Under the pieces are notes generated by a model. That model was not told the origin of the DNA. It saw only the letters and a program-made list of their open reading frames with translations, and ran no database searches. The translations under genes and the position numbers were made by a program. A stretch of DNA of 63,930 nucleotides, counting the filler, from Thermodesulfobacteriota bacterium (GTDB lineage Bacteria > DASVDK01), in NCBI GenBank assembly GCA_036381125.1. It is 5 parts of 5 records of this genome, joined end to end, with 100 filler letters (N's around TTAATTAATTAA, not from the genome) between each part and the next. Parts side by side here need not be neighbours in the genome. Positions count along the whole stretch, not along the records: positions 1 to 24,819 come from DASVDK010000062.1; 4 more parts are not named here. The stretch is one strand, 5' to 3'. Positions 2,315 to 30,018 of this stretch are shown piece by piece. Numbering within the stretch: position 1 is the first letter of the stretch; every line of letters begins with the position of its first letter.

Positions 2315-2343
2315 CCTCGCGTCGAGCCCCGACGGCTCCCCGT

Positions 2344-4901: not shown

Positions 4902-4914
4902 CCCCACACCCCCG

Positions 4915-9071: not shown

Positions 9072-9073
9072 CC

Positions 9074-10964: not shown

Positions 10965-10965
10965 C

Positions 10966-12090
10966 GTGCGTCTCGCCCGCCTCTTCGCCGTGGCCCGCAA
11001 GGAGGTCATCCAGATCCGGCGCGACCCGCGCAGCCTGGCGATGGCGTTCGTCATCCCGATGATCCTCCTCTTCCTCTTCGGCTACGCGCTCACGCTCGAC
11101 GTCGACGACCTGACGACGATCGTCTACGACCAGGACCGCACGGCCGCGAGCCGGGAGTTCCTCGCCCGCTTCGAGGAGTCGGGCTACTTCAGGGTCGTGG
11201 CCCACGCGGAGGCCTACGGCGACCTCGAGCGCGCCATCGACGCCGGCCGCGCCCAGGTCGGCCTCGTCGTCCCCACGGGCTTCGCCCGCGACCTCGACCG
11301 GGACCGCCGCGTGCCGGTCCAGGCGATCCTCGACGGCAGCGACTCGAACACCGCCACCATCGCCATCGCCTACCTCGAGGGGATCGCGGGCCGCTACTCG
11401 GACGAGCTCGTCACGGCGAGGGTCGGCCTGGGCGCCCGGGAGCCGCCGGTCGAGAGCCGGCTGCGCGTCTGGTACAACCCGGAGATCGAGAGCAAGAACT
11501 ACATCGTGCCGGGCCTGATCGCCGTCATCATGATGGTGATCGCGGCCCTCCTCACCTCCCTCACGATCGCGCGGGAGTGGGAGCGCGGCACGATGGAGCA
11601 GCTCGTCGCCACCCCGGTCCGGGTCCCGGAGCTGGTCCTCGGCAAGCTCCTCCCCTACTTCGGCATCGGCCTCGTCGACGTGGCGCTGGCGGTCCTGGCG
11701 AGCACCCTCGTCTTCCGCGTCCCCCTCCGCGGGAACGTCGTGCTGCTCCTCGGCCTCTCGCTCGTCTTCCTCCTCGGGGCCCTGAGCCTGGGCCTCCTGA
11801 TCTCGATCCGGGCGAAGTCGCAGCTCGTGGCGAGCCAGGTCGCCATGGTGGTCACGTTCCTCCCCTCGTTCCTCCTGTCGGGGTTCATGTACGACATCGG
11901 CAACATGCCGGGCTGGCTGCAGACCGTCACCTACGCGTTCCCGGCCCGGTACTTCGTGACGATCCTCAAGGGCATCTACCTGAAAGGGGTCGGTCCGCCG
12001 GCGCTGGTCGTGGAGGCCGCGTTCCTCGCGCTCTTCGCCCTCGCCGTGACGGCCGCCGCGCTCCGGGCGTTCCGCAAGAACCTCGAATGA
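10966..12090 (+). CDS. ABC-2 type permease (YbhS-like)
   Basis: RKEVIQIRRDPR, WYNPE, AREWERGTMEQL; multiple TM helices. Confidence 0.92.
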   Translation: MRLARLFAVARKEVIQIRRDPRSLAMAFVIPMILLFLFGYALTLDVDDLTTIVYDQDRTAASREFLARFEESGYFRVVAHAEAYGDLERAIDAGRAQVGLVVPTGFARDLDRDRRVPVQAILDGSDSNTATIAIAYLEGIAGRYSDELVTARVGLGAREPPVESRLRVWYNPEIESKNYIVPGLIAVIMMVIAALLTSLTIAREWERGTMEQLVATPVRVPELVLGKLLPYFGIGLVDVALAVLASTLVFRVPLRGNVVLLLGLSLVFLLGALSLGLLISIRAKSQLVASQVAMVVTFLPSFLLSGFMYDIGNMPGWLQTVTYAFPARYFVTILKGIYLKGVGPPALVVEAAFLALFALAVTAAALRAFRKNLE

Positions 12091-12106
12091 CGGAAGGGGG
12101 CCGACC

Positions 12107-12967
12107 GTGACCGGGACGACAGACCTCCGGGGCATCAAGCTCGCTCTCGCGACCTACGTCGTCGTCTTCGTGATGAAGCTCGCCGTGTACTTCATGTCCG
12201 GAGTCATGGCGCTCCTCGCCGAAGCGTTCCACACCCTGAGCGACGTCCTGATCTCGGGCTTCCTCCTCCTGGCGGCCAGGTGGTCGCGCAAGGCGCCCGA
12301 TCAGGTGCACATGTTCGGCTACGGACGGGCGCAGAACGTGGCGGCCCTGGTGGCAGCGACCCTCTTCATCTCCTTCACGAGCCTTCGGCTCTACGAGGAG
12401 GCGATCCCCAGGCTCTTCAGGCCCGAGGCGGCCGCCTACGAGAACCTCCCGCTCGCCGTCGGCGTGCTCGTCGTCTCGATGCTGATCGCCGCCGCGCCGC
12501 TGGTCGTGCTCCTCAGGCAACGCGCGCGGGGCGCGGCCGCCAGGGCTCAGCTCATGGAGCTCGTGAACGACGAGCTGGGCCTCGTGGCCGCGCTCGTCGG
12601 GACCCTCTTCGTCATCCGGGGACAGCCGCTCGCCGACCCGATCGCCACCCTGGTCGTCGCCACGATCATCGCGGCGAACGCCGTCGGGCTCTTCAAGGAC
12701 AACCTCCGCGTCCTGATCGGGCGGTCGCCGGGGCCGGAGTACCTGGCGAAGGTCGAGAGAGCCGCTCGGTCGGTCGACGGGGTCGAGGGCGTCCGGGACC
12801 TCAAGGCCGAGTACGTCGGGCCCGACGAGGTCCACGCCGGCATGCGCATCGGCGTGCGGCGGGGCGTCCCGGTCGAGGAGGCCGGCCGCATCGTGGCGGA
12901 GGTGCGGCGGCGCGTGCAGGACGAGGTCGACTGCCGCCACTGCTTCGTCGAGCTGGACGTGGCGTAG
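12107..12967 (+). CDS. Cation diffusion facilitator (CDF) family transporter
   Basis: AEAFHTLSD, PDQVHMFGYGRA and ADPIA motifs; C-terminal ZT_dimer-like domain. Confidence 0.88.
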   Translation: MTGTTDLRGIKLALATYVVVFVMKLAVYFMSGVMALLAEAFHTLSDVLISGFLLLAARWSRKAPDQVHMFGYGRAQNVAALVAATLFISFTSLRLYEEAIPRLFRPEAAAYENLPLAVGVLVVSMLIAAAPLVVLLRQRARGAAARAQLMELVNDELGLVAALVGTLFVIRGQPLADPIATLVVATIIAANAVGLFKDNLRVLIGRSPGPEYLAKVERAARSVDGVEGVRDLKAEYVGPDEVHAGMRIGVRRGVPVEEAGRIVAEVRRRVQDEVDCRHCFVELDVA

Positions 12968-12978
12968 GGGTCCGGACG

Positions 12979-14133
12979 ATGTGGGAACGCGTGAAGCACA
13001 TGCTGATCAAGGAGTTCATCCAGATCCTCAGGGACCCGCGGATGAAGGCGGTCATCTTCGTGACGCCCGTCCTCCAGCTCCTCGTCTTCGGCTACGCGGT
13101 GACGACCGACGTGACGGAGATCCCGACGGCCGTCGCGGACCTCGACCGCAGCCAGCAGACGCGGGAGATCGTCCGGCGCTTCGAGTCCTCCGGATACTTC
13201 AGGGTCGTCCGCCGGGTCGCCGACGCGCGCGACCTCCGGGCCCTCCTCGACCGGGGGACCGTGAAGGCGGCGCTCCAGTTCGACCCCGGCTTCACGACCG
13301 ACCTGCAGCGGGGCCGCACGGCGAGCCTCCAGATCCTCGTCGACGGCACCGACTCGAACACGGCCAGCGTCGTCATGGACTACGCGAACCGGATCGTCGC
13401 CCGCTACAATCAGGACGCCGCGCCCGCCGCCCGGGCCGCGGCGCGTCTGGCGGTCGGCACCGCGCCCGGTCCCGAACGGACGGCCCTCCCGAGCGTCGAC
13501 CTCCGGACGCGGGCCTGGTACAACCCCGACCTCGAGAGCCGCAACTACAATGTCCCGGCGGTGATCGCCATCATCGTCATGCTGACCTCGCTCCTCCTCA
13601 CGTCGATGGCCATCGTGCGCGAGCGCGAGATCGGCACGATGGAGCAGCTCATGGTCACGCCCATACGGCCGGCCGATCTGATCCTCGGCAAGACCCTGCC
13701 GTTCGCGCTCATCGGCTTCTTCGACGTCGCGCTGATCACGGCGGTCGCCGTCCTCTGGTTCGCGGTGCCGATCGCGGGAAGCCTCCTCCTGCTCCTCGGC
13801 GCGACGGCGCTGTACCTCGCCTCGACGCTCGGGATCGGCCTCTTCATCTCGACCGTCTCGAGGACGCAGCAGCAGGCGCTCATGTCGACGTTCTTCGTCT
13901 ACCTGCCGGCGGTCCTCCTCTCGGGCTTCATGTTCCCCATCGCCAACATGCCGCCGGCGATCCAGTACCTGACCTACGTGAACCCGCTCCGGTACTTCCT
14001 CGTGATCATCCGGGGGATCTTCCTCAAGGGGAACGGCCCGGACGTCCTCTGGCCGCAGATGCTGGCGCTCTCCGTCCTCGGCGTCATCGTCCTCACGGCC
14101 AGCACGCTGAGGTTTCGGAAGCGGCTCGATTGA
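12979..14133 (+). CDS. ABC-2 type permease (YbhR-like)
   Basis: MWERVKHMLIKEFIQILRDPR, WYNPDL, REREIGTMEQL, NPLRYF. Confidence 0.92.
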   Translation: MWERVKHMLIKEFIQILRDPRMKAVIFVTPVLQLLVFGYAVTTDVTEIPTAVADLDRSQQTREIVRRFESSGYFRVVRRVADARDLRALLDRGTVKAALQFDPGFTTDLQRGRTASLQILVDGTDSNTASVVMDYANRIVARYNQDAAPAARAAARLAVGTAPGPERTALPSVDLRTRAWYNPDLESRNYNVPAVIAIIVMLTSLLLTSMAIVREREIGTMEQLMVTPIRPADLILGKTLPFALIGFFDVALITAVAVLWFAVPIAGSLLLLLGATALYLASTLGIGLFISTVSRTQQQALMSTFFVYLPAVLLSGFMFPIANMPPAIQYLTYVNPLRYFLVIIRGIFLKGNGPDVLWPQMLALSVLGVIVLTASTLRFRKRLD

Positions 14134-14149
14134 GAAGGAGAGTCGATTC

Positions 14150-14638
14150 GTGACGAAGACGAGATCCACGAGGCGTGCACGGGCCGCCGTCGCCGCGGCC
14201 CTGACCGTGATCACCGTCGGTTTCGCCGCCGGGTCCCCGAACCTCGGCAGGGCCGACACCCCGAGTCCCGCCGACACCCGGCAGCGGCTCGCGCTGCCGG
14301 CCGGGCCGCGCGACCAGGTGCTCGCCGAGATGCGGCACATGCTGGAATCGGTGAACGGTATTCTCGGGGGCCTCGCCGACGGCGACATGCGCGCCGTCGA
14401 GAAGGCCGCGCGCGCGTCCGGCATGGCGGCGGCCGGCAACGTGAACCCCCAGATACGGCAACGCCTGCCCCAGGCCTTCCTCAAGCTCGGGATGGGGACC
14501 CACAAGGCGTTCGATGCGCTCGCCGACACGATGGCGGCCGGCGGGACCCGGGAGGACGCGCTGAGGGGCCTCACGGAGATCACGTCGAGGTGCGTGTCGT
14601 GTCACGCGACGTACCGGCTCGACGAAGCGCCGCACTAG
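14150..14638 (+). CDS. Class II cytochrome c (cytochrome c'-like)
   Basis: AAGGAG SD; signal peptide; helical protein with a single C-terminal CVSCHATYR. Confidence 0.8.
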   Translation: MTKTRSTRRARAAVAAALTVITVGFAAGSPNLGRADTPSPADTRQRLALPAGPRDQVLAEMRHMLESVNGILGGLADGDMRAVEKAARASGMAAAGNVNPQIRQRLPQAFLKLGMGTHKAFDALADTMAAGGTREDALRGLTEITSRCVSCHATYRLDEAPH

Positions 14639-14771
14639 GGTTCACCGACCGGGCGTAACGGGGGTCGTCCCCGTGCGGATCCGGTCGCAGGCCCCGGGCC
14701 GCTCCCCCCTCCTTTCGAACCCGCCCGCCGTGTAAGCCGGCTGGAAGGCCGGCCGGCGATCCTCCCTCGCG

Positions 14772-14981
14772 ATGAATCGAGCAGGCCCGAAGCGCCCGGG
14801 TGCCGGCGAGCCGGTCTCCTTCGTCATCGTGCTCTGGCTCGAGCCGGGGCGGCGAGGGGCGAAGCCGGAGTGGCGCTGGCGCGTGCGGCAGGCGCAGACC
14901 GGTGAGGAGGGCTGCTTCCGGCGCCTCGACGACGTGCTCGCGTACGTCAAGAGCCGGGCGGGCGTCCCGGCACCGGCCTGA
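14772..14981 (+). CDS. Small conserved-looking hypothetical protein
   Basis: 69 aa with SFVIVLWLE...[12 protein letters not shown]...F..LDDVLAYV pattern; fills the gap before the cytochrome gene. Confidence 0.6.
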
Positions 14982-15014
14982 CGGCGGCGAGCCGAGGGGG
15001 AAGCGAGGGATCGG

Positions 15015-15842
15015 ATGGTACGGCGACGTTCTCGCGCATGGGTGCTCGGACTCGTCCTGGCCGGTGGGTTCGTACCGGCCCTCGCGGCGTGGGCGGCGCC
15101 CTCGCCGGCGGACGGCGAGCGGCTCTTCCAGGAGCGCTGCGCCGCCTGCCACACCATCGGCAAGGGGGACCTCGTCGGCCCGGACCTCCAGGGGATCACC
15201 GCCCGCCGCGACCGGGACTGGCTCGTCCGGTGGATCGTCGCGCCCGACCGGATGCTGGCGGCGGGCGACCCGATCGCCACGGCCAGCCTCGCGAAGTACG
15301 GCGTCCCGATGCCCAACCTCGGGGTGACCGAGGCCGAGGCGGCGGCCCTCGTGGGCTATCTCGGCGCGCAGGCGGGCCCCGCCCCCGCGCCGCAGCCGGC
15401 GCGGGCGGTCGCACTCCCGCCGGGCGACCCGGCGGCCGGCAAGGACCTCTTCACCGGAGCCGCACGGCTCGCCGGCGGCGGCCCCCCGTGCATGGCCTGC
15501 CACAGCGTCGCCGGCATCGGCGCGCTCGGCGGCGGCGCGCTGGGGCCCGACCTCACGCCGGCCTACGCGAAGTTCGGGGCGAGCGGAATCGCCTCGATCC
15601 TCGCGACGATGCCCTTCCCCACCATGGCGCCGATCTTCACGACGCAGCCGCTCACCGCGCGGGAGCAGGCCGACCTCGCCGCGTTCCTGGAGCAGACGGC
15701 GGTGATGCAGCGGCCGCCGCAGGCGGTCGGCGCGCTCGCCGCGCTCGCGGGCGCCGGGGCGGTGCTCCTCCTGGCGCTGGCCAACCTGCTCTGGCGCCAC
15801 CGACTCACCGGCGTGCGGCGGTCGCTGGTCAACCGGGGGTAA
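15015..15842 (+). CDS. Membrane-anchored diheme cytochrome c (NarC-like)
   Basis: Signal peptide, CAACH and CMACH each followed by GPDL and a distal Met, C-terminal TM helix; 5 bp upstream of narG. Confidence 0.88.
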
Positions 15843-15847
15843 CCGAC

Positions 15848-18800
15848 ATGGGCTGGATCCAGGACCTCGTCAGGCCGAAGGCGCGCCAGTGGGAGGAGTT
15901 CTACCGGAACCGCTGGCAGCACGACAACGTCGTCCGCAGCACCCACGGGGTCAACTGCACGGGCGGCTGCTCGTGGGCCGTGTTCGTGAAGGACGGCATC
16001 GTCACATGGGAGATGCAGCAGACCGACTACCCGATGCTCGAGCCGGGCCTGCCGCCCTACGAGCCGCGCGGCTGCCAGCGGGGCATCTCGGCCTCCTGGT
16101 ACGTCTACAGCCCGATCCGCGTGAAGTACCCGTACGTCCGCGGTGCGCTCATGGACCTCTGGCGCGAGGCGCGCGGGCGGCACGCGAACCCGGTGGAGGC
16201 GTGGGGCTCGATCGTCGGCGATCCCGAGAAGCGGGCCCGCTACCAGCGCGCGCGGGGCAAGGGCGGCTTTCGCCGCGCGCGCTGGGACGAGGTCCTCGAG
16301 CTCGTCGCCGCCGCCTGCCTGCACACGGCGAAGCGCTGGGGGCCCGACCGCGTGTTCGGCTTCTCCCCCATCCCCGCGATGTCGTACCTCTCGTACGCCG
16401 GCGGCTCGCGCTTCCTGCAGCTCTTCGGCGGCGTGAACATGAGCTTCTACGACTGGTACGCCGACCTCCCGAACGCCTTCCCCGAGATCTGGGGCGACCA
16501 GACCGACGTCTGCGAGAGCGCCGACTGGTTCAACGCCAGGTACATCGTGTCGATGGGCTCGAACCTCAACATGACGCGCACGCCGGACGTGCACTTCATC
16601 TCCGAGGCGCGCCACGAGGGGGCCAAGTTCGTCGTCATCGCCCCCGACTTCAGCCAGGTGGCCAAGTACGCCGACTGGTGGATCCCCGTGCGCGCCGGCC
16701 AGGACACGGCGCTCTGGATGGCGGTGAACCACGTCATCCTCACCGAGTTCCACGCCGCCCGTGAGGTCCCCTACTTCACCGACTACCTGCGGCGCTACAC
16801 GGACGCCCCGTTCCTCGTCGAGCTGGTCAGGGGCGACGGCGGCTACGTGCCGGGGCAGTTCCTGCGCGCCGGGCGGCTCGCCCGGTACCGGAACACGGAA
16901 CTCGGCGACTGGAAGCTCCTCGTCCACGACGCGGCGAGCGGCGAGCCCCGGATGCCGAAGGGGGCGGTCGGGTTCCGGTGGGGCCGCGAGACGGGTAAGT
17001 GGAACCTCGAGATGAAGGACGGCCTCGACAACGCGCCGATCGAGCCGGTCCTGACGTTCCTCGGCCGCGAGGAGGGCGTCCTCGAGGTCGGCTTCCACGA
17101 CTTCGCCGGCGGTCGGATGGTGTCGCGCGGCGTGCCGGTGCGGTACGTCGAGACCGCCGAGGGGCGCGTCCCGGTCACCACGGTCTTCGACCTCCTCATG
17201 GCGCAGTTCGGCGTCGGCCGCGGCCTCGCCGGCGCCTACCCGACCGGCTACGACGACGACGCCCCCTACACGCCCGCGTGGCAGGAGCGGTTCACCGGGA
17301 TCGGCCGCGAGACCGTCATCCGGCTCGCGCGCGAGTTCGCCGGCAACGCCGAGGCGACCCGCGGCCGCTCCATGATCATCGTCGGCGCGAGCATCAACCA
17401 CTGGTACAACAACAACCTCGCCTATCGCGCCCCCATCACGGCCCTGATCCTCACCGGCTGCTGCGGCCGCAACGGCGGCGGGATGAACCACTACGTCGGC
17501 CAGGAGAAGCTGACCCTCGTGGCGCCCTGGACGACGCTCGCCTTCGCCCTCGACTGGGTGAGGCCGCCGCGCCGGCAGCAGTCGCCCCTCTGGCACTACC
17601 TCCACAGCGACCAGTGGCGCTACGAGGGGGACTTCACCGAGTACGCCGCGGTCCCGCCCGGCGCGCGCTGGGCGAAGGGCCACGCGGCCGACCTGGCCGC
17701 CAGGGCGGTGCGCCTCGGGTGGATGCCCTTCTACCCGCAGTTCGACCGCAACCCGCTCGACCTCGCGCGGGAGGCGGAGGCGGCCGGCGCCGCGACCGGG
17801 GAGGCCGCGGCGCGCTGGACGGTCGAGCAGATCCGGAGCCGCCGGCTCCGCTTCGCCGTGGACGACCCGGACGCCGAGGCGAACTGGCCGCGCGTCTGGC
17901 TCATCTGGCGCGGCAACGCGATCATGTCGAGCGCGAAGGGGCACGAGTTCTTCCTGCGCCACTACCTCGGGACGCACGACAACAGCGTCGCCGAGGAGCA
18001 CGCCAGGGGCCGCACCCGGACGGTCACGTTCCGGGAGCCGGCGCCCCGGGGCAAGATGGACCTCGTGGTCGACGTGAACTTCCGCATGGACACGTCGGCG
18101 CTCTACTCCGACGTCGTCCTGCCGACCGCGATGTGGTACGAGAAGAACGACCTCAACACGACCGACCTGCACTCCTTCATCCATCCGCTCGGCGCCGCCG
18201 TGCCGCCGGTCTGGGAGGCGAAGAGCGACTGGGAGATCTTCAAGGCGCTCGCCCGCACGGTGAGCGACCTCGCGCCGCTCGTCTTCCCGAAGCCGGTCCG
18301 CGACCTGGTCGCCACGCCGCTCATGCACGACACGCCCGACGAGGTCGCCCAGCCCGCGGTGCTCGACTGGGCGGCCGGCGAGTGCGAGCCGGTCCCGGGC
18401 GCGACGATGCCGCACATCCGGGTCGTCGAGCGGGACTACGTCAACCTCTACAACCGCTTCGTCTCGTTCGGCCCGAACGCGCGCGAGGACGGCCTCGACG
18501 GCAACGGCGTCCACGTCCCGATCGAGCGGTTCTACGACGAGCTGCTCGAGAACCCGGTCGGCGGCACTCCCGATCCGCGGCACCTGCGCTGCGTCGCCTG
18601 GGGCGGCCGCAAGTACCCGTCCCTGGAGGACGCCCTCGACGCCGCGAACCTGCTGCTCCACCTGTCGCCGGAGACCAACGGCGAGGTCGCGTACGAGGCC
18701 TTCCGGCACGAGGAGGCGCGCGTCGGCCTGCCGCTCGCCGACCTGGCGGAGAAGGTGCGCGGCGTGCGCATGAGCTTCGGCGACCTCACCCGGCAGCCGA

Positions 18801-19492
18801 GGCGCACGCTGATCAGCCCCTGCTGGACCGGCATGGTCAACGACGGCCGCGCCTACGCCGCCTGGTGCATCAACGTCGAGCGGCTCGTCCCCTGGCGGAC
18901 GCTCTCGGGGCGGCAGCACCTCTACGTCGATCACCCCCACTACCTCGACTTCGGCGAGCACCTGCCGACCTTCAAGGCGAAGCTCGACCCGCGGCGGACG
19001 GGCGACATCGTCCTGAGCCCCAACGGCGACGGCTGCCTCGTGCTGAACTACATCACGCCGCACGGCAAGTGGCACATCCACTCGACCTACTACGACAACC
19101 ACCGGATGCTCACGCTCTCGCGGGGAATCGAGCCCTGCTGGATCAACGACCGCGACGCCGAGCGGATCGGCATCAGGGACAACGACTGGGTCGAGGTCTA
19201 CAACGACAACGGCGTCATGGTGACCCGGGCGGCGGTGAGCGCCAGGGTCCAGCCCGGCACCTGCATGGTCTACCACTCGCCCGAGCGGACCATCTCCATC
19301 CCGAAGTCGCAGGTCCGCGGGGGGCGGCGGGGCGGCGGGCACAACAGCCTCACGCGCACCCGGATCAACCCGGTCCAGCTCGCCGGCGGTTATGCCCAGT
19401 TCACCTACGGCTTCAACTACTGGGGGCCGATCGGCATCTTCACCCGGGACACGTACGTGGTGGTCCGACGGCTCGAGCGGCTCGAATGGTGA
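15848..19492 (+). CDS. narG: Nitrate reductase / nitrite oxidoreductase alpha subunit (cytoplasm-facing NarG/NxrA, 1214 aa)
   Basis: [10 protein letters not shown]...RGCQRG FS0 motif, [10 protein letters not shown] Mo-ligand region, [26 protein letters not shown]; no Tat signal. Confidence 0.96.
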
Positions 19493-20037
19493 CGGGCGGA
19501 GAGAAGGCGGACGGGCCGCTCACCCGGCGGCGGCTCTCGGAGCACTTTTTGCGCGTCTTCCACGAGGATCACCGCGCCCTGCGCGACGAACTGCTCGACC
19601 TCGTGGAGGCGCTCCGCGCGCGCGACGGGGCGGCGGTCCGGTCGCGGCTCGACCGGATCGCGGCCGACACCGGGCCCCACTTCCGTTACGAGGAGGAGGC
19701 GCTCTACCCGGCGCTCGTCGAGATCCTCGGGCCCGAGCCGATGGAGGACCTCTTCGGCGACCACGACCGGTTCATCGGCGTCGCGGGGAGCCTGGCCGCG
19801 CTCGCGGCCCGAAGCGTCCTCTCCGACGAGGACGCCGCCTACGGCATCCGCCTCGCCCGGAGCGTCCTCCCCCACGTGAGCCGCTGCGGCGGGCTCGCGA
19901 TCCTGGTGGAGGCCCTCTCGAACGAGACGGTGCGGGCCGTCCTGGGCGCCCGGGCGTACGCGCGCGCCGATGGGCTGGACCTGTTCGACTGGGCCATGCG
20001 GGTGCGGCGCCGGCCCCGCGTCGCGACGGCGGTGTAG
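19486..20037 (+). CDS. Hemerythrin-like domain protein between narG and narH
   Basis: Start overlaps the narG stop (ATG 19486 or GTG 19489); FHEDHRAL...[11 protein letters not shown]...DHDR...HVSRC. Confidence 0.75.
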
Positions 20038-20078
20038 GGCGCGCCCGGGACCCGGTCACGGGCGGCAAGGAGGACGAC

Positions 20079-21580
<1,502 letters not shown>

Positions 21581-21587
<7 letters not shown>

Positions 21588-22138
21588 GGCGACGGCTCCT
21601 CGCGCTCTTCGCGGACATCCTCGACTACCCGGGCCCCGGGCTGGCGCGGGCGGTCGGCGCGTGCGAGGCGCTGGCGGCGTCGGCGAGCGCCGAGGCGGCG
21701 TCGCTCCTCGGCGCGTTCCGAACCTTCGTCGAGCAGACCCCCCTCGCCCGCCTCGAGGAGGTCTACACCGCCACGTTCGACCTCGACGCCGCCTGCCATC
21801 CCTACGTCGGCTACCACCTCTTCGGCGAGACCTACAAGCGGAGCGTCTTCCTCGTGGGGTTGCGCGAGCGCTACCGCGCGATCGGCTACCTGGACGGCGC
21901 GGAGCTGCCCGACCACGTCGCGGTCCTCCTCCGCTTCCTCGCGCTGACGGAGGACGCGGCGCAGGCCGAGGAGGTCGTGCAGGAGGCGCTCCTCCCGGCG
22001 CTCGAGCGGATGACCGCCGGGGCCGACGCGGGCCCGGAGGAGGCCGGGCACGAGCCGAAGCCGGCGCACTACCGGCCGGTCCTCCGCGCCCTGTACCTCG
22101 TCCTCGGAGGGGAGGCCGCGCGGGCCGCGGCCGTGTGA
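21581..22138 (+). CDS. narJ: Nitrate reductase molybdenum cofactor assembly chaperone
   Basis: LDYP, YTATFDL and ELPDHVAVLLRF motifs; operon position. Confidence 0.9.
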
Positions 22139-22180
22139 TCCGCGGAGCCCCACGGGCCCCGAGCCAAGGAGGCCGCACCC

Positions 22181-22861
22181 ATGGTCGACCTGCTCCTGTT
22201 CGCCGTGTTCCCCTACGTCGCCGCCGCGCTCGCCGTCGTCGGCGGGGTCTACCGGTACGCGAACGACCGCTTCTCGTTCTCGAGCCAGTCGTCGCAGTTC
22301 CTCGAGAACCGGGCCCTCTTCTGGGGCTCGGTGGCCTGGCACTACGGGGTGCTCGTCATCCTCCTCGCGCACCTCCTCGCGCTGCTCTTCCCGGGGGCAT
22401 GGGCGACCCTGATCGCGTCCCCCCTGCGCCTCTACGCGCTCGAGGTGACCGGCCTCGCCCTGGCGGTCGTGACGATCGCGGGGCTCGCGGCGTTGATCGT
22501 CCGGCGGCTCTCGAGCCCGCGCGCGGCGGCCGTGACGAGCCCGATGGACTGGGTCCTGCTCGCGGCCCTTCTCGCGCAGGTCGTGCTCGGCTTCTGGGTG
22601 GCCCTCTTCTACCGCTGGGGGTCCGACTGGTACCTGCACACGGCCGTCCCCTGGCTCGTGTCGCTCGTCACGTTCTCGCCCCGCATCCAGCACGTGGCGG
22701 CGCTGCCGTGGGTGGTGAAGCTGCACATGACCGGCGCGTTCGTCCTCCTCGCCCTCTTCCCGTTCACTCGCCTCGTCCACGTCGTCACGGTGCCGATCGC
22801 CTACCTCTGGCGACCCTACCAGGTGGCGATCTGGAACCGGCGCACCGCCGCCGGGCGATAG
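22181..22861 (+). CDS. narI: Respiratory nitrate reductase gamma subunit (cytochrome b)
   Basis: VFPYV, SSQSSQFLE, WHYG...AH, KLH and FPFTRLVH heme-b His ligands; five TM helices. Confidence 0.93.
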   Translation: MVDLLLFAVFPYVAAALAVVGGVYRYANDRFSFSSQSSQFLENRALFWGSVAWHYGVLVILLAHLLALLFPGAWATLIASPLRLYALEVTGLALAVVTIAGLAALIVRRLSSPRAAAVTSPMDWVLLAALLAQVVLGFWVALFYRWGSDWYLHTAVPWLVSLVTFSPRIQHVAALPWVVKLHMTGAFVLLALFPFTRLVHVVTVPIAYLWRPYQVAIWNRRTAAGR

Positions 22862-22865
22862 CGCC

Positions 22866-24062
22866 GTGGCCTCCCGACCGGCGAACCGCCAGCTCGCGCT
22901 GGCGACCGTCGCGTTCGGGGTCGCCTTCGCGGTGTGGGGCCTCCTCCCCGGGCTGATGCCGGTGCTCGGGGAGGCGTACCGCCGCGAGGAGGGGCATCGC
23001 CTCGGCGCCGCCGCGGCGGCGCTCGTGGTCGCGATCCCGGTCGTCCTCGGCTCGCTCGGCCGCATCCCGGCCGGCATGCTGGCGGACCGGTTCGGCGGCC
23101 GCCTCGTCTTCAGCGCCCTCCTGGTCCTGGTCGCCGTTCCCTGCTTCGCCCTCGCGCTCGACCACGACGACTACGACCGGCTCCTCGTTTTCGGGCTCTG
23201 GATCGGCCTCGCGGGGGCGGCGTTCGCGGTGGGCGTCGGCTTCGTCTCGGCCTGGTTCCCGCCCGACCGGCAGGGCGCGGCGCTCGGCGTCTACGGCACC
23301 GGCAACGTCGGCCAGTCGGCGGCGGTGTTCCTCGCGCCGCTCCTCGCGACGACGATCGGCCTCGCTGCGACGTTCGCGCTCTTCGGCGCCGCCGCGCTGG
23401 CGTACGGGATCGCCTTCGCCCTCCTCGCCCGCGACGCGGCACCCGCCCGGCGCCGCGAGCCGATGGTGGCCGGCCTCCGCGCGCTCCTGGCCGACCCGGC
23501 GGCCTGGCGGCTCTCGCTCTTCTACTTCCTGACGTTCGGCGGGTTCGTGGCGCTCGGCGTCTACCTGCCGACCCTCCTGCGGGAGACGTTCGGCCTCGCC
23601 CCGGTCGACGCCGGCGCGCGGACCGCCGGGTTCGTCCTCCTCGCCACGGCGGTCCGGCCGGTCGGGGGGTGTCTCGGCGACCGGGTCGGCGGGGAGCGCG
23701 TGCTCGCGGGCGTCTTCGCGGGGGTCGCCCTCCTCGCGTGGCTCCTCGTGCTCGACTCGATCTATCCGTTCACCGTCGGCGCGCTCGGCTCCGCCGCGCT
23801 CCTCGGCCTCGGCAACGGCGCCGTCTTCAAGCTCGTCGCGCAGCGCTTCCCGCAGCGGACCGGCACCGCCACGGGGCTCGTCGGCGCGGCCGGCGGCCTC
23901 GGCGGCTTCTTCCCGCCCCTCGCGCTCGGGCTCTTCAAGGACACGGTCGGCAGCTACGCGCCCGGGTTCGCCCTCCTCAGCGTCTTCGCCCTCGTCTGCG
24001 AGCTCGTGCTCGTGCGCACGGTCGCGCCCGACGTCTGGAAGCCGACGCGGGTCGCGTCCTGA
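22866..24062 (+). CDS. narK: NarK/NasA-family nitrate/nitrite MFS transporter
   Basis: GSLGRIPAGMLADRFGGR, WFPPDRQGAALG, YFLTFGGFVA, GLGNGAVFK, GAAGGLGGFFPP. Confidence 0.9.
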   Translation: MASRPANRQLALATVAFGVAFAVWGLLPGLMPVLGEAYRREEGHRLGAAAAALVVAIPVVLGSLGRIPAGMLADRFGGRLVFSALLVLVAVPCFALALDHDDYDRLLVFGLWIGLAGAAFAVGVGFVSAWFPPDRQGAALGVYGTGNVGQSAAVFLAPLLATTIGLAATFALFGAAALAYGIAFALLARDAAPARRREPMVAGLRALLADPAAWRLSLFYFLTFGGFVALGVYLPTLLRETFGLAPVDAGARTAGFVLLATAVRPVGGCLGDRVGGERVLAGVFAGVALLAWLLVLDSIYPFTVGALGSAALLGLGNGAVFKLVAQRFPQRTGTATGLVGAAGGLGGFFPPLALGLFKDTVGSYAPGFALLSVFALVCELVLVRTVAPDVWKPTRVAS

Positions 24063-24093: not shown

Positions 24094-24819
24094 TCAGGTC
24101 TCGACCCGCCGACCCCCGTCACGCGGCGCGGGGCCGGCGCGGACCCGCTCGGCGAGCCGCTCGGTCTCGGGCAGCGGCGCGACGCCGAGCTCCTGCCGCA
24201 GGATCTCGCGGCAGGTCCGGTACTGGCGCAGCGCCTCGTCGCGCCGGCCGGCGCGCCAGAGCGCCTCCACGAGCCGCCGGTGGATCTCCTCCCGGATCGG
24301 GTCCACGCGGAGGGCGCGGCGGCAGCAGGCAATCGCCCGATCGAGGTCTCCCTCGCGCGCGTGGAGGCCTGCGAGCGCGGTCAGCACGTCGAGCAGGAGC
24401 TCGCGCAGGTGCTCCCGCTCGAGGCTGCACCAGTCCGCGTCCGGCTCCCCCTCGAGGAGGTCTCCCCGGTAGAGGTCGGCCGCCGTCTCGTACGCGCCGA
24501 TCGCCTCCGCGATCGCCCCCGACCGCTCGGCGCGCCGGCCTGCCGCCACGGCCGCGCCGAACGCCCGCACGTCGACCCAGCAGGCGTCCCCGACGTCGAG
24601 GCGATACGCGTCGGGGGTGCGGCGGACGACCGACGCGTCGAGGACGCGGCGCAGGGCGTGGACGACGACGTGCAGCCGGCCGGCCGCGAGCGCGGGGGCC
24701 GCCCCCGGCCAGAGGATCGCCTGAAGCGTGTCGCAGGGGACCGGTCGGCCGGCGTTGACGAGGAGGACCTTGAGCAGCGTGAGCGCCTTTCGGCGGCCGA
24801 CCATCTCCGGCGTCACGAG
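24094..24819 (-). CDS. SARP/BTAD-domain transcriptional regulator (5' partial)
   Basis: Winged-helix end (LWP...LHVVVHALRRVL), WVDV, LYRGDLL, DPIREEIHRRL, LRQELGVAPLPET; frame open to the contig end. Confidence 0.88.
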   Translation of the reverse strand, partial: LVTPEMVGRRKALTLLKVLLVNAGRPVPCDTLQAILWPGAAPALAAGRLHVVVHALRRVLDASVVRRTPDAYRLDVGDACWVDVRAFGAAVAAGRRAERSGAIAEAIGAYETAADLYRGDLLEGEPDADWCSLEREHLRELLLDVLTALAGLHAREGDLDRAIACCRRALRVDPIREEIHRRLVEALWRAGRRDEALRQYRTCREILRQELGVAPLPETERLAERVRAGPAPRDGGRRVET

Positions 24820-25158: not shown

Positions 25159-27063
25159 GTGAGTGAAGCCGTCGCCCCGTCGCGGGCGGCCGCGCCCCGC
25201 GGCGCGGCCGCCCTGCCTCTCACGCTCGCCGCGCTCGGGATCGTCTACGGCGACATCGGCACGAGCCCTCTTTACGCCCTCCGGGAGGCCTTCAGCGGCC
25301 GGTACGGCATCGAGGCTTCCCGGGCGCACGTCCTCGGGGTCCTCTCGCTCGTCTTCTGGGCGCTTGCCGCGGTCGTCACCGTGAAGTACCTCGGCTTCAT
25401 CATGAGGGCCGACAATCGGGGCGAGGGGGGGATCTTCGCCCTTCTGGCCCTCGTGCCGCGAGTCGCCGAGCGCGGGCCGTCGGGCCGGGCGAGGGCGCTC
25501 GTGCTGCTCGCCCTGTTCGGCGCGGCCCTCCTCTACGGCGACGGCGCGATCACGCCCGCCATCTCCGTCCTGTCCGCGGTCGAGGGGCTCCAGGTCGGCA
25601 TGGACGCCTCCCAGCCGGCCGTCATCGCGCTCACCGTGGCGATCCTCGTCGGGCTGTTCCTCGTCCAGCGGCGGGGCACCGCCGGCATCGGCCGGGTCTT
25701 CGGCCCGATCATGCTCGTCTGGTTCACGGCGATCGGACTCCTCGGTCTCGTCCAGGTCGCGCGCGAACCGTCGGTCCTCGCGGCGCTGAACCCGCTCTAC
25801 GGCGTCGAGCTGTTCGTCGAGCGGCCGTTTCGCACCTTCGCCCTCCTCGGCGCGGTCGTGCTCGTCGTCACGGGAAGCGAGGCGCTCTACGCCGACATGG
25901 GGCACTTCGGGCGCCGCCCGATCCGGCTCGGTTGGCTCGGCCTCGTCTGGCCGGCCCTCGTCCTGAACTACTTCGGCCAGGGGGCGCTCCTCCTCGAGTC
26001 GCCCGGCGCCGCGGTGAGCCCGTTCTACGCGCTCGTGCCCAGGCCGCTGCTCTACCCGATGGTCGGCCTCGCGACGGCGGCCACGATCATCGCCTCGCAG
26101 GCGCTCATCTCGGGGGCGTTCTCGCTCGCACGCCAGGCGGTCCAGCTCGGCTACTGGCCACGCGTGACGATCGTCCACACCTCCGAGTCGGCCGAGGGGC
26201 AGATCTACATCCCCGAGGTCAACTACGGGCTCATGGTGGCCTGCATCTGGCTCGTGCTCGAGTTCCAGGAGTCTGGCGCCCTGGCCGCGGCCTACGGCCT
26301 CGCCGTGACCGGCACCATGACCATCACGTCGATCGTCTACTTCGTCGTGCTGACGCAGGCGTGGCGCTGGCCCCCCTGGCGCGCCGGCCTGCTCGTGGCC
26401 GGGTTCCTCGCCTTCGACCTTCCGTTCCTCGGCTCGGCCCTGCTCAAGTTCACCGAGGGGGGCTGGTTCCCCGTGGCGGTCGGCGCCGCCGTCTTCGCCG
26501 TGATGCTCACCTGGAAGGACGGGCGTGCGGTGCTCGCGCGGCAGATGCAGGAGCGCACGATGCCGATGGACCTCCTCCTCGAGGACGTGGCCAGGCGAAG
26601 GCTGCCGCGGGTCCCCGGGACCGCGGTCTTCATGGCGTCCGATCCCCGGGGCGCGCCGGTCGCCCTCCTCCACCACCTCAAGCACGACAAGGTGCTCCAC
26701 GAGCAGGTCGTGCTGCTGTCGATCGTGCCGAAGGACGTACCGCGCGTCCCGGCCGACGAGCGGCTCGCCATCGAGCGCCTCGGCGAAGGCTTCTGGCGCG
26801 TCGTCGCCCGCTACGGCTTCATGGAGACGCCGAACGTGCCGGAGATCCTCGGCCGCTGCCTCGGGCACGGCCTCTCGACCGATCCGATGACGACGACCTT
26901 CTACCTCTCCCGCGAGACCCTCCTCACCCACGGCCGCTCCGGCATGATGCGCTGGCGCAAGGCGCTCTTCGCCTTCCTCTCGCGCAACGCCCGCCCGGCC
27001 ACCGCCTACTTCGGGATCCCCCCCGGCCGCGTGGTGGAGCTGGGGATGCAGGTCGAGATCTAG
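25159..27063 (+). CDS. kup: Kup/HAK/KT potassium transporter
   Basis: GIVYGDIGTSPLYA, ADNRGEGG, YGDGAITPAISVLSAVEG, EALYADMGHFG, GQIYIPEVN. Confidence 0.96.
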   Translation: MSEAVAPSRAAAPRGAAALPLTLAALGIVYGDIGTSPLYALREAFSGRYGIEASRAHVLGVLSLVFWALAAVVTVKYLGFIMRADNRGEGGIFALLALVPRVAERGPSGRARALVLLALFGAALLYGDGAITPAISVLSAVEGLQVGMDASQPAVIALTVAILVGLFLVQRRGTAGIGRVFGPIMLVWFTAIGLLGLVQVAREPSVLAALNPLYGVELFVERPFRTFALLGAVVLVVTGSEALYADMGHFGRRPIRLGWLGLVWPALVLNYFGQGALLLESPGAAVSPFYALVPRPLLYPMVGLATAATIIASQALISGAFSLARQAVQLGYWPRVTIVHTSESAEGQIYIPEVNYGLMVACIWLVLEFQESGALAAAYGLAVTGTMTITSIVYFVVLTQAWRWPPWRAGLLVAGFLAFDLPFLGSALLKFTEGGWFPVAVGAAVFAVMLTWKDGRAVLARQMQERTMPMDLLLEDVARRRLPRVPGTAVFMASDPRGAPVALLHHLKHDKVLHEQVVLLSIVPKDVPRVPADERLAIERLGEGFWRVVARYGFMETPNVPEILGRCLGHGLSTDPMTTTFYLSRETLLTHGRSGMMRWRKALFAFLSRNARPATAYFGIPPGRVVELGMQVEI

Positions 27064-27176
27064 CGCCGGCGGGCCGCTCGAGCCCTCCCCCCGGGGCGGT
27101 GCGGATGCCTTACGGCCTTACCCGGTGGCAGCCGCGGGCGAGGTGCAGGCCTCGCGGTGCCTGCCAGGGATCGGGG

Positions 27177-27539
27177 CTAGGCCTCCGGCGGCGGCGTGGG
27201 CCTGCCGAACGCCATCCGCGCCACCCGCGCGATCGCCATGACGATGCCGTAGGTGCAGCCCCACACGAGGAGCCGCTCGCCGAGCGGCATGGGCTTGTCG
27301 AGCGTCGGTAGCAGGGCGATCAGCGCGGCGGCCGCGGAGAGGACCGGGCCGGCCCAGAGGGCGTGCAGGAGGCCGCGCAGGTCGCGGCCCGGCGCGGTCC
27401 AGGCGAGGGCGGCTGCGGCGAGGCCGGCGAGGACGGCCCAGTTGACCGCGTCGCCGGGACGCCCGAAGAGGCGCGACCAGCCGAAGGCTGCCGCGGCCGG
27501 CACCGCGACGGCGACGAGGAACCGGGCGAGTGCGGCCAC
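27177..27539 (-). CDS. Hypothetical membrane protein (about 4 TM)
   Basis: 120-aa hydrophobic ORF starting 4 bp after the tsaE stop. Confidence 0.55.
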   Translation of the reverse strand: MAALARFLVAVAVPAAAAFGWSRLFGRPGDAVNWAVLAGLAAAALAWTAPGRDLRGLLHALWAGPVLSAAAALIALLPTLDKPMPLGERLLVWGCTYGIVMAIARVARMAFGRPTPPPEA

Positions 27540-27543
27540 GGCG

Positions 27544-28011
27544 TCAGGCGGCGAGGGCCGCGAGGCGGGCCGCCGACCTGGGGCCGCGCGCGACGAGACC
27601 GATCCGCCGCTCCCCCTCCCCTTCCCCTTCGATGGTCACCTCGATCCGGTCGGCCGGCAGGAGCGACGGCGCGCGCTCCGCCCACTCGACCGCGAGGACG
27701 GCGTCGTCGGCGATCTCCTCGAGGCCGAGGTCGTAGGCGGCCGAGGCCTCGTCGAGGCGGAAGAGGTCGGCGTGGACGACCGGGACGCGGCCGCCGTACC
27801 GGGCGACCAGGGCGAAGGTGGGCGAGGAGACCTCGCCCGGGTCGCCCCCCGCGCCGCCGACGAGGCCACGGACGAACTCCGTCTTGCCGGCTCCGAGCGG
27901 CCCGTGGAGGGCCACGGCGTCGCCCGGCTCGAGCAGCGCCCCGAGCCGGCGCCCCACCTCGCGCGTCGACGCGGCGGTCGGCGCGGTGACCTGCCGCCGC
28001 TCGCCGCTCAC
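27544..28011 (-). CDS. tsaE: tRNA threonylcarbamoyladenosine biosynthesis ATPase
   Basis: GPLGAGKT, VSSPTFAL, HADLFRL and VEWAE; GTGA overlap with the nnr stop. Confidence 0.92.
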   Translation of the reverse strand: MSGERRQVTAPTAASTREVGRRLGALLEPGDAVALHGPLGAGKTEFVRGLVGGAGGDPGEVSSPTFALVARYGGRVPVVHADLFRLDEASAAYDLGLEEIADDAVLAVEWAERAPSLLPADRIEVTIEGEGEGERRIGLVARGPRSAARLAALAA

Positions 28012-29579
28012 GCGGCCTTCGGCGCGAGGGCGGCGAGCACCCGCGGGAGCCTCCCTGCCAGGTCGGTGGCGAGGAGACCGGCCGGGCCGACCTCCTCGGC
28101 CCCGAGGTCGCCGGCCGCCCCGTGCAGGTAGGCGCCGAGCTCCGCCGCCGACGCGGCGTCGAGGCCCTGCCCCAGCAGGGCGCCGATCACGCCCGAGAGG
28201 ACGTCCCCCATGCCGCCGGAGGCCATCGCCGGGTTGCCGGTCGAGTTCACGGCCAGCGCGCCGTCCGGCCTGGCGACCAGGGTCCGGTGCCCCTTGAGGA
28301 GCGCGATTGCCCCGGACAGCCTGGCGGCTTCGCGGGCCGCCGCCGGCCGGTCGGCCTCGACCTCGCGCGTCGTCCGGCCGAGGAGCCGGCCCATCTCGCC
28401 CGGGTGGGGGGTGAGGACCCGCGGGCCGGCGGCACCCTTGAGCGCCGCGAGCCCCTCGGCCCCGCCGAGCGCGTTGAGGCCGTCGGCGTCGAGGAGCAGC
28501 GGCCGCTCGACCCGGCGCGCGAGCTCGCGGACCACCGTCACGGCCCCGGGCCGCGTGGTGAGGCCCGGGCCGAGGACGACGGCGTCGCGCGCCGCGGCCA
28601 GCTCGACGAGGAGCGGGAGGGCCGACGCGTCGAGGGCGCCGTCGGGCCCCTCGGGCAGCGGCCGGACCATCGCCTCCCAGAGCTTGGTCTCGAGCGCCGG
28701 CCTGAGCGAGGCGGGCGCCGCCACGGTCACGAGCCCCGCCCCGGCCCGGAGGGCGCCGAGCGCCGCCAGGGCCGCGGCGCCGGCCGTCCCCTGCGCCCCC
28801 GCCACGACGAGGACGTGTCCGTACGTCCCCTTGTGCCCGGCCGGGTCGCGCGGCAGGAGCCTCGCCAGCGCCGGCGCGACCTCGTCCCGGTCGAGGAGCC
28901 GGTCGCCGGGCGCCGCGTCGAGGAGCGCCCTGGGATGGCCGATGTCGACGACCTCTACCCGACCGGCCAGCGACGCGCCCGGATCGAGGGCGAGGCCGAG
29001 CTTGGCGAGGCCGAACGTCACCGTGAGCCGGGCCCGCACGGCGACGCCGAGAACCGCGCCGGTGCCGGCATGGACGCCGGAGGGGAGGTCGAGGGCGACG
29101 ACCGGTGCGCCGCAGCCGTTCAGCCACTCGACCGCGCGGCGGTGGACCCCTTCGAGGGGGCGCGCAAGCCCCGTCCCGAAGAGGGCGTCCACCGCGAGGT
29201 CGACCGCCGGCGGGAGCGCCGCGACGAGGGCCGCCTCGTCCGGCGCCTCGGCGAGGAGCCCGGGAGCGGCCGCCTCGAGCGCCGCGAGGGCCCGAGCGGC
29301 GTCCCCCCTGACCTGGTCGCGACGGCCGACGAGGAGCGGCCGCACCGAGCGGGCGCCCGCGGACACCAGGTGGCGGGCCACGACGAAGCCGTCGCCGCCG
29401 TTGTTGCCGGGGCCGCAGAGGAGCGCCACCCGCCCGGCCCACTCCGAGGCGAAGCGCCGGCAGATCGCCTCGAACGCGGCGCGCCCCGCCCGCTCCATGA
29501 GTTCGGGCGTGGCGGGCCCGCCGGCGGCCGCCGACTCCCGGTCGAGCCGCAGCATCGTCTCGGGTGCGACGAGCTTCAT
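28008..29579 (-). CDS. nnr: Bifunctional NAD(P)H-hydrate epimerase/dehydratase
   Basis: CGPGNNGGDG, DALFGTG, HKGTYG, LTPHPGEM, MASGGMGDVLSG. Confidence 0.94.
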   Translation of the reverse strand: MKLVAPETMLRLDRESAAAGGPATPELMERAGRAAFEAICRRFASEWAGRVALLCGPGNNGGDGFVVARHLVSAGARSVRPLLVGRRDQVRGDAARALAALEAAAPGLLAEAPDEAALVAALPPAVDLAVDALFGTGLARPLEGVHRRAVEWLNGCGAPVVALDLPSGVHAGTGAVLGVAVRARLTVTFGLAKLGLALDPGASLAGRVEVVDIGHPRALLDAAPGDRLLDRDEVAPALARLLPRDPAGHKGTYGHVLVVAGAQGTAGAAALAALGALRAGAGLVTVAAPASLRPALETKLWEAMVRPLPEGPDGALDASALPLLVELAAARDAVVLGPGLTTRPGAVTVVRELARRVERPLLLDADGLNALGGAEGLAALKGAAGPRVLTPHPGEMGRLLGRTTREVEADRPAAAREAARLSGAIALLKGHRTLVARPDGALAVNSTGNPAMASGGMGDVLSGVIGALLGQGLDAASAAELGAYLHGAAGDLGAEEVGPAGLLATDLAGRLPRVLAALAPKAA

Positions 29580-29637
29580 CCGCGGGGGCCCTCGAGGACG
29601 CCCCGGGGAGCCTTCGACAGCGATCGCAGCAGAGCCG

Positions 29638-30018
29638 TCATGGGCCCTCGAGGACCACGACGGCGACCGCGTAGGCGTCGTCGTGGGACAGGGAGACGTG
29701 GGTGCGGACGACGCCGCGCGCGTCGGCCGAGCGACGGGCGGCCCCCTCGACGGCGAGTACCGGCCGGCCGGAGGCCTCGCGGGCGACCGACACGTCGCGC
29801 CACCGCATGCCGGCGCCGACGCCGATGCCGAGCGCCTTGGCGAAGGCCTCCTTGGCCGCGAACCGTGCGGCGAAGGCGATGCCCGGCCGCCGCTGGGTGC
29901 GGCAGTAGGCCGACTCCTCGGCGGTGAAGATCCGCCGCTCGAACCGGTCGCCGTGCGCCGTGAAGGCCGCCTCGAGCCGCTCGACCGACGCGAGGTCGAC
30001 CCCGACCCCGATGATCAC
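29638..30018 (-). CDS. acpS: Holo-ACP synthase
   Basis: [27 protein letters not shown]. Confidence 0.95.

Follow-up and report, generated by a model that had tools for sequence, protein, structure and literature searches.

The stretch of DNA considered here (the window; 63,930 nucleotides from the Thermodesulfobacteriota assembly GCA_036381125.1) consists of five contigs joined by spacers of N, the first of which (contig 1, positions 1-24819) carries an operon related both to respiratory nitrate reductases (Nar) and to the cytoplasmic nitrite oxidoreductases (NXR) of Nitrobacter and Nitrococcus. The operon probably encodes a respiratory nitrate reductase of the NarC type, bound to the membrane and with a cytoplasmic active site. 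By its gene content it fits the four-subunit enzyme of Thermus (narCGHJIK), in that a predicted diheme, membrane-anchored cytochrome c is encoded directly upstream of narG. A first-pass annotation of the same DNA had proposed either an unrecognised nitrite oxidiser or a nitrate reducer whose enzyme comes from the NXR clade. The second alternative is the better reading and the resemblance to NXR does not in itself point to nitrite oxidation, because the clade concerned is large and made up mostly of lineages not known as nitrite oxidisers. The operon type is already known and widespread and this is a fairly ordinary find.

Genes were called by six-frame reading and their proteins profile-scanned against Pfam and NCBIfam, which revealed one compact operon of seven genes on the + strand at 15015-24062 of contig 1:

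15015..15842, + strand: NarC-like membrane-anchored diheme cytochrome c, 275 aa (Pfam Cytochrom_C, E 2.6e-17)
15848..19492, + strand: NarG, catalytic subunit with the molybdenum-bis(molybdopterin guanine dinucleotide) (Mo-bisMGD) centre, 1214 aa (TIGR01580, 1495.7 bits against a cut-off of 1084)
19486..20037, + strand: hemerythrin-like protein (extra gene X), 183 aa, its start overlapping the end of narG (Pfam Hemerythrin PF01814, E 2.6e-11, 44.5 bits against a cut-off of 25.3)
20079..21587, + strand: NarH, iron-sulfur subunit, 502 aa, GTG start (TIGR01660, 634.2 against 524; Pfam Fer4_11 and Nitr_red_bet_C)
21581..22138, + strand: NarJ, molybdenum-cofactor insertion chaperone, 185 aa (TIGR00684, 67.8 against 59.35; Pfam Nitrate_red_del)
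22181..22861, + strand: NarI, diheme b membrane anchor with quinol site, 226 aa, five hydrophobic stretches (Pfam Nitrate_red_gam, E 6.7e-69; TIGR00351, 139.2 against 105.55)
22866..24062, + strand: major facilitator superfamily (MFS) transporter, NarK-like, 398 aa (Pfam MFS_1; NarK family TIGR00886, 210.5 bits, below the cut-off of 311.7)

All seven genes named in the first-pass annotation (cytochrome c, alpha, an extra gene, beta, narJ, narI and narK) were recovered at the same positions. The alpha, beta, delta and gamma subunits (NarG, NarH, NarJ and NarI) each score above the NCBIfam equivalog cut-off. The MFS transporter, which falls below the cut-off of its family, has 36% identity to the MFS gene that follows narI in Thermus. 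The cytochrome c has CxxCH motifs at residues 42 and 159 and a hydrophobic stretch at each terminus, and only 5 bases separate the end of its gene from the start of narG.

Over its whole length the NarG of the window aligns with E. coli NarG of known structure (1255 bits over residues 12-1214). The pattern of the iron-sulfur cluster FS0 (H-x3-C-x3-C plus a distal Cys) and the Mo-ligand Asp are all kept, aligned to E. coli H50, C54, C58, C93 and D223 (precursor numbering), the first four of which are the FS0 ligands and the last the Mo ligand of the E. coli enzyme. The length of 1214 aa reported earlier was confirmed, and inspection of the N-terminal sequence by eye found no twin-arginine motif, in agreement with the earlier statement that a twin-arginine translocation (Tat) signal is missing. 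Together with the NarK-like gene directly downstream, this suggests that the active site faces the cytoplasm.

Relatives of NarG were sought in one genome per species; 596 were returned and the best 80 kept. Among them identities of 74-81% were found to metagenome-assembled genomes (MAGs) labelled Chloroflexota, Actinomycetota, Acidobacteriota, Gemmatimonadota, Eremiobacterota and Burkholderiales, and of 75-76% to two Methanoperedens-type archaea. Identity is 70% to the NxrA of Nitrobacter, 68-69% to the two NxrA copies of Nitrococcus, 61-67% to the Geobacter, Anaeromyxobacter and Myxococcales types, 62% to Thermus thermophilus and 47% to E. coli. For NarH the values are 71% to Methanoperedens, 66 and 65% to Nitrobacter and Nitrococcus and 50% to E. 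coli, which bears out the claim that both subunits are nearer to cytoplasmic NXR than to E. coli-type Nar. When Nitrococcus NxrA itself was used as the query of a second scan, the nearest sequences beyond its own close kin were of the Chloroflexota type (71-73%), as against 69% for Nitrobacter. The peptides that had been quoted as NXR-like are all present in the NarG of the window and occur in 11/11 named Nitrobacter and Nitrococcus rows, but are found in 58-77 of the 77 other clade rows as well, so that they mark the whole clade and not NXR; the count for one of them, WEMQQTDY, is biased upward because it had served as a search pattern in both scans for NarG relatives.

Phylogenetic analysis was based on three trees: a FastTree tree of NarG with 139 rows, an IQ-TREE maximum-likelihood tree of NarG under LG+G4 with 70 rows and 1214 columns (rows picked from the 139, plus five close database proteins; support as ultrafast bootstrap/Shimodaira-Hasegawa-like approximate likelihood ratio test), and a quick NarH tree with 56 rows. 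The outgroup comprised E. coli, Paracoccus, Ralstonia, Bacillus and the actinobacterial type. In the IQ-TREE analysis Thermus branches first from the outgroup, followed by a group of Geobacter, Anaeromyxobacter, Acidobacteria and cyanobacteria, then by Hippea and then by a clade of 51 rows (100/99), with Methanoperedens at its base. It is this clade that holds the NXRs; besides Methanoperedens, most of its members are MAGs from lineages that are not known to oxidise nitrite. The window NarG belongs to a group of five rows (100/97) with P0002, P0003 and P0004, its 92%, 86% and 83% relatives, and with L185, which is labelled Binatia, and this group is sister to a clade of 44 rows (93/89). The NxrA sequences of Nitrobacter and Nitrococcus form separate lineages in a 14-row clade (99/90) lying inside a 34-row clade (100/99), and the window lies outside both; its alpha subunit is thus not within the smallest clade joining the enzymes of these two proven nitrite oxidisers. 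The less resolved NarH tree pairs the window with the same Binatia sequence (96) within a clade of 40 rows (100), outside the Nitrobacter lineage, and both it and the 139-row FastTree agree with the IQ-TREE placement. As the first-pass annotation would have it, the trees of both subunits set the window with the NXRs (100/99 for NarG) and apart from the Thermus, Geobacter and actinobacterial types of Nar, so that the branching which that annotation had named as a refutation is not seen.

The layout of the operon had been said to mirror the nxr locus of Nitrobacter. The cytochrome-c-first order is indeed common to the two, but it is not specific: in 69 of the 81 loci compared, narG is directly preceded by a homolog of this cytochrome c gene, and on the plasmid of Thermus thermophilus the order is c-type cytochrome, alpha, beta, a TorD-family chaperone, gamma and MFS. 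Because both the 69 loci and the Thermus plasmid share it, the layout is to be seen, on the gene orders compared, as a trait of a large Nar/NXR clade and not of nitrite oxidisers. The 12 loci that lack the cytochrome are those of E. coli, five in which narG begins close to or at the end of a contig, four that are nxrA copies standing alone or relatives of these (L028, L031, L033 and L035) and two contigs labelled Heimdallarchaeota. Compared with the cytochrome encoded ahead of narG in Thermus, that of the window is 39% identical over 200 aa; the figure is 48% for the Nitrobacter cytochrome and 46% for the Methanoperedens one. Passages of PMC7694296 describe Thermus NarC as a membrane-bound periplasmic diheme cytochrome c that interacts with NarI and is required for an active, membrane-attached nitrate reductase; they also point out a similar cluster in Nitrobacter, for which the proposal is that electrons leave the enzyme through the cytochrome c subunit. 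The transfer of nar clusters into the Thermus strain HB27 is reported there as well.

The extra gene is a different matter. It lies between the alpha and beta genes, as in Nitrobacter, and is alike by position only, so the earlier comparison with the Nitrobacter locus does not extend to this gene. The X of Nitrobacter (NxrX) and that of a Thermomicrobiaceae MAG (L023) are FKBP-type isomerases (Pfam FKBP_C), whereas the profile match in the window identifies a hemerythrin HHE cation-binding domain protein, putatively di-iron. NxrX was accordingly rejected as the identity of the window gene, hemerythrin not being homologous to the FKBP-type isomerase. In a survey of the gap between narG and narH in 140 locus rows that have both the narG end and the narH start (some contigs having been fetched twice), the gap exceeds 300 bases in 33, and 22 of these 33 have the Nitrobacter-type X. 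No FKBP-type X turned up between narG and narH outside the rows of the clade in which Nitrobacter and Nitrococcus fall.

The hemerythrin family to which the window protein belongs is small, with 140 members at E <= 1e-5 in a large protein collection. An alignment of 34 sequences shows H29, H65, E69-71, H93, D94 and E142 to be invariant, with H130 at >=90%. An AlphaFold2 model is an all-helical bundle (predicted local distance difference test score, pLDDT, 93.2); a Foldseek search of the PDB with this model gave no match at E <= 0.001, and its best neighbours there are hemerythrin-like and weak (E 0.05-0.25, template modelling score about 0.5). Homologs were found in only two of 163 related locus rows, one at the same position in a member of the Anaerolineales (L129) and one upstream, beside an MFS gene, in a member of the Solirubrobacteraceae (L021). 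Two of the closest members of the family probably also adjoin a NarG, as they come from contigs of the same sizes as those of the 97% NarG (4519 bases) and of an 86%-cluster NarG member (36219 bases). A contig from a plastisphere DNA run spans the end of narG into the hemerythrin gene (18014-19737) at ~94% identity. By analogy with di-iron proteins of nitrosative-stress management such as YtfE (the subject of PMC9052748), the protein may be an accessory that senses or detoxifies O2, nitric oxide (NO) or nitrite, or that protects iron-sulfur clusters.

Observations on NXR-like loci in other genomes may be recorded here. One MAG labelled Mycobacterium (L042) and one labelled 'uncultured archaeon' (L027/L166) each have an NxrA that falls among Nitrobacter in the FastTree tree and look like mis-binned or mislabelled Nitrobacter; L027 has a full Nitrobacter-type operon with an FKBP-type X. 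The Thermomicrobiaceae MAG (L023/L143) has a NarG that is sister to Nitrococcus NxrA (91/96), an FKBP-type X and a strong match to the RuBisCO large subunit (436 bits), and is a candidate Nitrolancea-like nitrite oxidiser.

If the E. coli and Thermus enzymes are taken as guides, quinol would be oxidised at the diheme-b NarI of the window and electrons would pass through the four iron-sulfur clusters of NarH and FS0 of NarG to the Mo-bisMGD centre, where nitrate would be reduced to nitrite. NarJ would mature NarG and the NarK-like MFS protein would bring nitrate in and take nitrite out. The periplasmic, membrane-anchored diheme cytochrome c would bind NarI and be needed for assembly, and it could also give electrons a side route linking the enzyme with cytochromes of the periplasm. 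Gene content, family membership, kept cofactor ligands and phylogenetic position are what the sequence shows, whereas the direction of catalysis and the roles of the cytochrome c, the hemerythrin and a small reading frame upstream are inferred.

Nitrate reduction is favoured because the window lies outside the clade of the proven NXRs, the same operon type is a proven reductase in Thermus (passages of PMC7694296), copies from Methanoperedens are basal in the clade, no NxrX is present and RuBisCO is scarce among the hosts of clade enzymes. The most direct alternative is a physiological nitrite oxidoreductase in an unrecognised aerobic nitrite oxidiser, with electrons running from NarG through NarH and NarI to the diheme cytochrome c and on to a terminal oxidase, as proposed for Nitrobacter. 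Membership of the same 51-row clade, the 68-70% identity to the NxrA of Nitrobacter and Nitrococcus and a leading cytochrome c homologous to that of Nitrobacter all speak for it. That cytoplasmic NXR modules have spread horizontally between phyla is also documented in parts of PMC3504966, and Nitrobacter-like operons in genera outside the nitrite-oxidising bacteria (NOB) are proposed as those of potential NOB in parts of PMC12823411. It is nevertheless highly improbable, given the points listed above and the fact that the close relatives of the host are labelled Thermodesulfobacteriota. This phylum is mostly anaerobic. The further idea, belonging to the nitrite-oxidiser explanation, that the hemerythrin is an O2- or NO-responsive element setting the direction of catalysis is likewise very doubtful. 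Were nitrite oxidation nonetheless the true function, the organism would be the first known nitrite oxidiser of its phylum.

An enzyme working in both directions is unlikely too, if a little less so. It would serve nitrate respiration when oxygen is absent and, under oxic or micro-oxic conditions, oxidise nitrite through the NarC-like cytochrome to gain extra electrons or remove nitrite, with the hemerythrin helping to sense or tolerate the switch between O2 and NO. The reversibility of NXR and Nar is discussed for Nitrobacter in passages of PMC12300631, the enzyme is placed between proven reductases and proven oxidases, a periplasmic cytochrome c offers electrons an entry or exit that bypasses quinol, and a hemerythrin-type di-iron protein is encoded inside the operon. 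The stretch, or relatives at ~94-97%, also occurs in DNA from soil, mangrove and plastisphere, which are habitats of fluctuating oxygen. Yet the sequence bears no sign of nitrite oxidation, which thermodynamically requires an acceptor chain of high potential, and the part given to the hemerythrin is drawn from family membership.

Several considerations weigh against nitrate reduction as the function of the operon or blunt the evidence for it. The direction of catalysis is not fixed by sequence, a conclusion that the first-pass annotation had also reached; Nar and NXR are reversible, and according to passages of PMC12300631 the enzyme of Nitrobacter acts as a nitrate reductase in vitro and reversibility is emphasised in reviews. 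The cytochrome c fits either direction, being the proposed exit for electrons in Nitrobacter, and the absence of NxrX is not diagnostic because Nitrococcus, with only 84 bases between narG and narH, also lacks it. A union of the window group with the 14-row clade that holds the NXRs is rejected, at a cost of 90.3 log-likelihood units (approximately unbiased test, AU, p 0.017), which speaks for nitrate reduction, but the test was made under LG+G4 with no mixture model and on a group chosen once the tree was already known. The NarG trees contain neither the NxrA of Nitrolancea nor Methylomirabilis, which were not recovered in two scans of genome contigs with the window NarG and Nitrococcus NxrA as queries; the nxrA copies of Nitrolancea are described in part of PMC3504966 as fragments at contig boundaries, which may explain why they were missed. 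The scarcity of RuBisCO rests on a survey that covered MAGs of relatives, possibly incomplete, and not the window's own genome: strong matches to the large subunit were obtained in both controls (Nitrobacter and Nitrococcus) and in only 3 of 31 other genomes carrying clade enzymes (L016, L023 and L043), 28 being without one. The NarGs of two of the three RuBisCO-positive genomes fall in the 14-row clade, and no match was found in the Binatia genome, the nearest to the window NarG among the genomes surveyed. A search with an FNR-type consensus found no box in 14639-15014, upstream of the operon, and so gives no positive sign of anaerobic control; elsewhere there were 6 matches at up to 2 mismatches, against 1.6 expected.

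Comparison with characterised systems shows both likenesses and differences. It is like Thermus NarCGHJI(K) in gene order, in a cytochrome with two heme c motifs and a membrane anchor and in the cytoplasm-facing active site predicted here; it differs in that Thermus lies outside the 51-row clade, has no gene between alpha and beta and is flanked by regulators of the Crp/Fnr type and GAF proteins, in place of the SARP/BTAD fragment of the window. With the cytoplasmic NXRs of Nitrobacter and Nitrococcus it shares the clade, the upstream cytochrome c, the succession of NarJ and NarI and the quoted motifs, and differs in its place outside the smallest Nitrobacter-Nitrococcus clade and in having a hemerythrin where Nitrobacter has the FKBP-type protein. 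Among the open reading frames (ORFs) scanned in the 64-kb window there are no genes for an aerobic cytochrome c oxidase chain or for CO2 fixation. E. coli NarGHJI (structures such as 1Q16) has the same subunits and the same cofactor ligands, but is an outgroup enzyme without a cytochrome c subunit and with narK upstream. A Gaiellales MAG (L004) carries two adjacent nar operons on one contig (at about 1-5100 and 8208-15700), one of the E. coli/actinobacterial type (NarG 52% and NarH 53% identical to those of the window) and the other of the NarC type (NarG 78%).

The second, NarC-type nar operon of 'Candidatus Methanoperedens' BLZ2 and METP1 has full cytochrome c-G-H-J-I synteny with the window, although the host is an archaeon and neither a hemerythrin nor a NarK-like gene was detected beside the Methanoperedens operon. 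Methanoperedens is described as a nitrate reducer in parts of PMC4683180, which also give the second narG copy of strain MPEBLZ as expressed (RPKM 342) in a methane-oxidising culture fed with nitrate; this copy may be the homolog of the window gene. On the 129.6-kb contig C27 of Methanoperedens sp. BLZ2 (L011/G005) the NarC-type narG lies at 26761-30360, and a distant molybdopterin oxidoreductase with a 1160-aa frame near 81-83 kb is probably the Tat-type Nar of the literature.

Enzymes resembling Nitrobacter NXR are common in soil genomes, and most of them are probably nitrate reductases. It follows that surveys of marker genes which count them would overestimate the NOB guild, the same point being made in parts of PMC12823411 (Microflora Danica), where Nitrobacter-like cytoplasmic NxrA/NarG is reported as widespread in non-nitrifiers and cultures as needed before an organism is called a NOB. 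The function of the NXR-like Nar of Methylomirabilis was left open in PMC6094997. The lineage of the window is a poorly known group, whose FtsH has identities of <=77% beyond a handful of close relatives, and with this operon its predicted abilities come to include nitrate respiration. It also adds two details to what is recorded for Nar, a hemerythrin family between narG and narH in a few lineages and an unannotated conserved ORF of 69 aa ahead of the cytochrome gene.

The host, a soil bacterium not in culture, has close relatives labelled Thermodesulfobacteriota. The window NarG is itself in the protein collection (P0122, from a contig of 24819 bases), and its 90% cluster includes a partial protein with that label, which is also carried by a 98% match to the FtsH encoded on contig 2. 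The first-pass annotation fairly noted that binning alone links contig 1 to the core contigs, and the labels and the ladders of identity now lend that binning modest support. The ladders, which run parallel, descend through 97, 92, 86 and 83% for NarG and through 98, 97, 95, 89, 87 and 84% for FtsH before the latter drops to 77% and below. No close species representative was found: a scan of genome contigs with FtsH topped at 74%, and in five genomes with related NarGs identities were 49-70% for FtsH and 60-73% for enolase. Mis-binning of contig 1, with the operon derived from another community member such as one of the Chloroflexota or Actinomycetota, is on the whole unlikely, though less so than either alternative for the direction of the enzyme; it would concern the host alone and is compatible with any of the functions discussed. 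It would accord with the many phyla spanned by the nearest named NarG relatives, with the records that themselves look mis-binned (L042 and L027) and with the SARP/BTAD regulator beside the operon. Such regulators are commonest in actinomycetes. The tetranucleotide correlation of contigs 1 and 2 (r = 0.976) is too weak a comparison to settle the matter because unrelated high-GC loci give 0.93-0.970. Against mis-binning stand the shared Thermodesulfobacteriota label of the NarG cluster mate and the FtsH match, the similar ladders, the like guanine-plus-cytosine (GC) contents (72.8% and 73.9% for contigs 1 and 2) and a cytochrome with five CxxCH motifs that is also on contig 1.

Occurrence was assessed in public sequencing runs, those with a share of <0.2 being left out. 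One soil DNA run contains the stretch almost whole and may be its source, and in DNA runs of other studies, from soil, mangrove and plastisphere, much of the operon is covered by relatives with a DNA identity of ~94-97%. A compost RNA library (X20; share of words 0.07) holds contigs of 182-356 bases with ~90-99% identity to parts of the cytochrome c, narG, narJ/narI and MFS genes, which were not taken as evidence of expression or habitat.

The remaining features of contig 1 that bear on electron transport or regulation are as follows:

1277-2314, + strand: cytochrome carrying five CxxCH motifs (matched in Pfam by cytochrome c7 and class III cytochromes), with the frame open from 1277 and the likely start near residue 103 of its translation
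14150..14638, + strand: small c-type cytochrome, possibly cytochrome c'-like, 162 aa (Pfam Cytochrom_C_2, E 3.6e-4, 21.9 bits, below the cut-off of 26.5)
14772..14981, + strand: small conserved ORF of 69 aa, shortly before the cytochrome c gene, with high third-position GC in frame
24094..24816, - strand: SARP/BTAD-TPR transcriptional regulator (Pfam BTAD, E 3e-35, plus TPR repeats), cut by the contig end at 24819 and divergent from the transporter gene

The 69-aa ORF lies outside the coordinates of the first-pass annotation and matches no Pfam or NCBIfam family. A tblastn search located it in 9 distinct related contigs, where it likewise lies upstream of the cytochrome c gene (36-64% identity, E down to 6.5e-18); the contigs are from Dehalococcoidia, Thermomicrobiales, other Chloroflexota and one member of the Acidobacteriota. 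The nearest Atlas clusters are of unnamed proteins of 62-68 aa, commonest in Chloroflexota, with scores <0.9 that make them leads only. The 162-aa cytochrome directly before the operon has an N-terminal hydrophobic stretch and a single CxxCH at residue 148, 15 residues from the C-terminus, and no NCBIfam match; its assignment as cytochrome c'-like is weak, and it might bind NO. A link between the SARP/BTAD regulator and the operon is unproven. Contig 1 further encodes two radical-SAM proteins, an HlyD/ABC-2 export system and a cation-efflux gene, and the five-CxxCH cytochrome fits an organism with electron transport of an anaerobic type.

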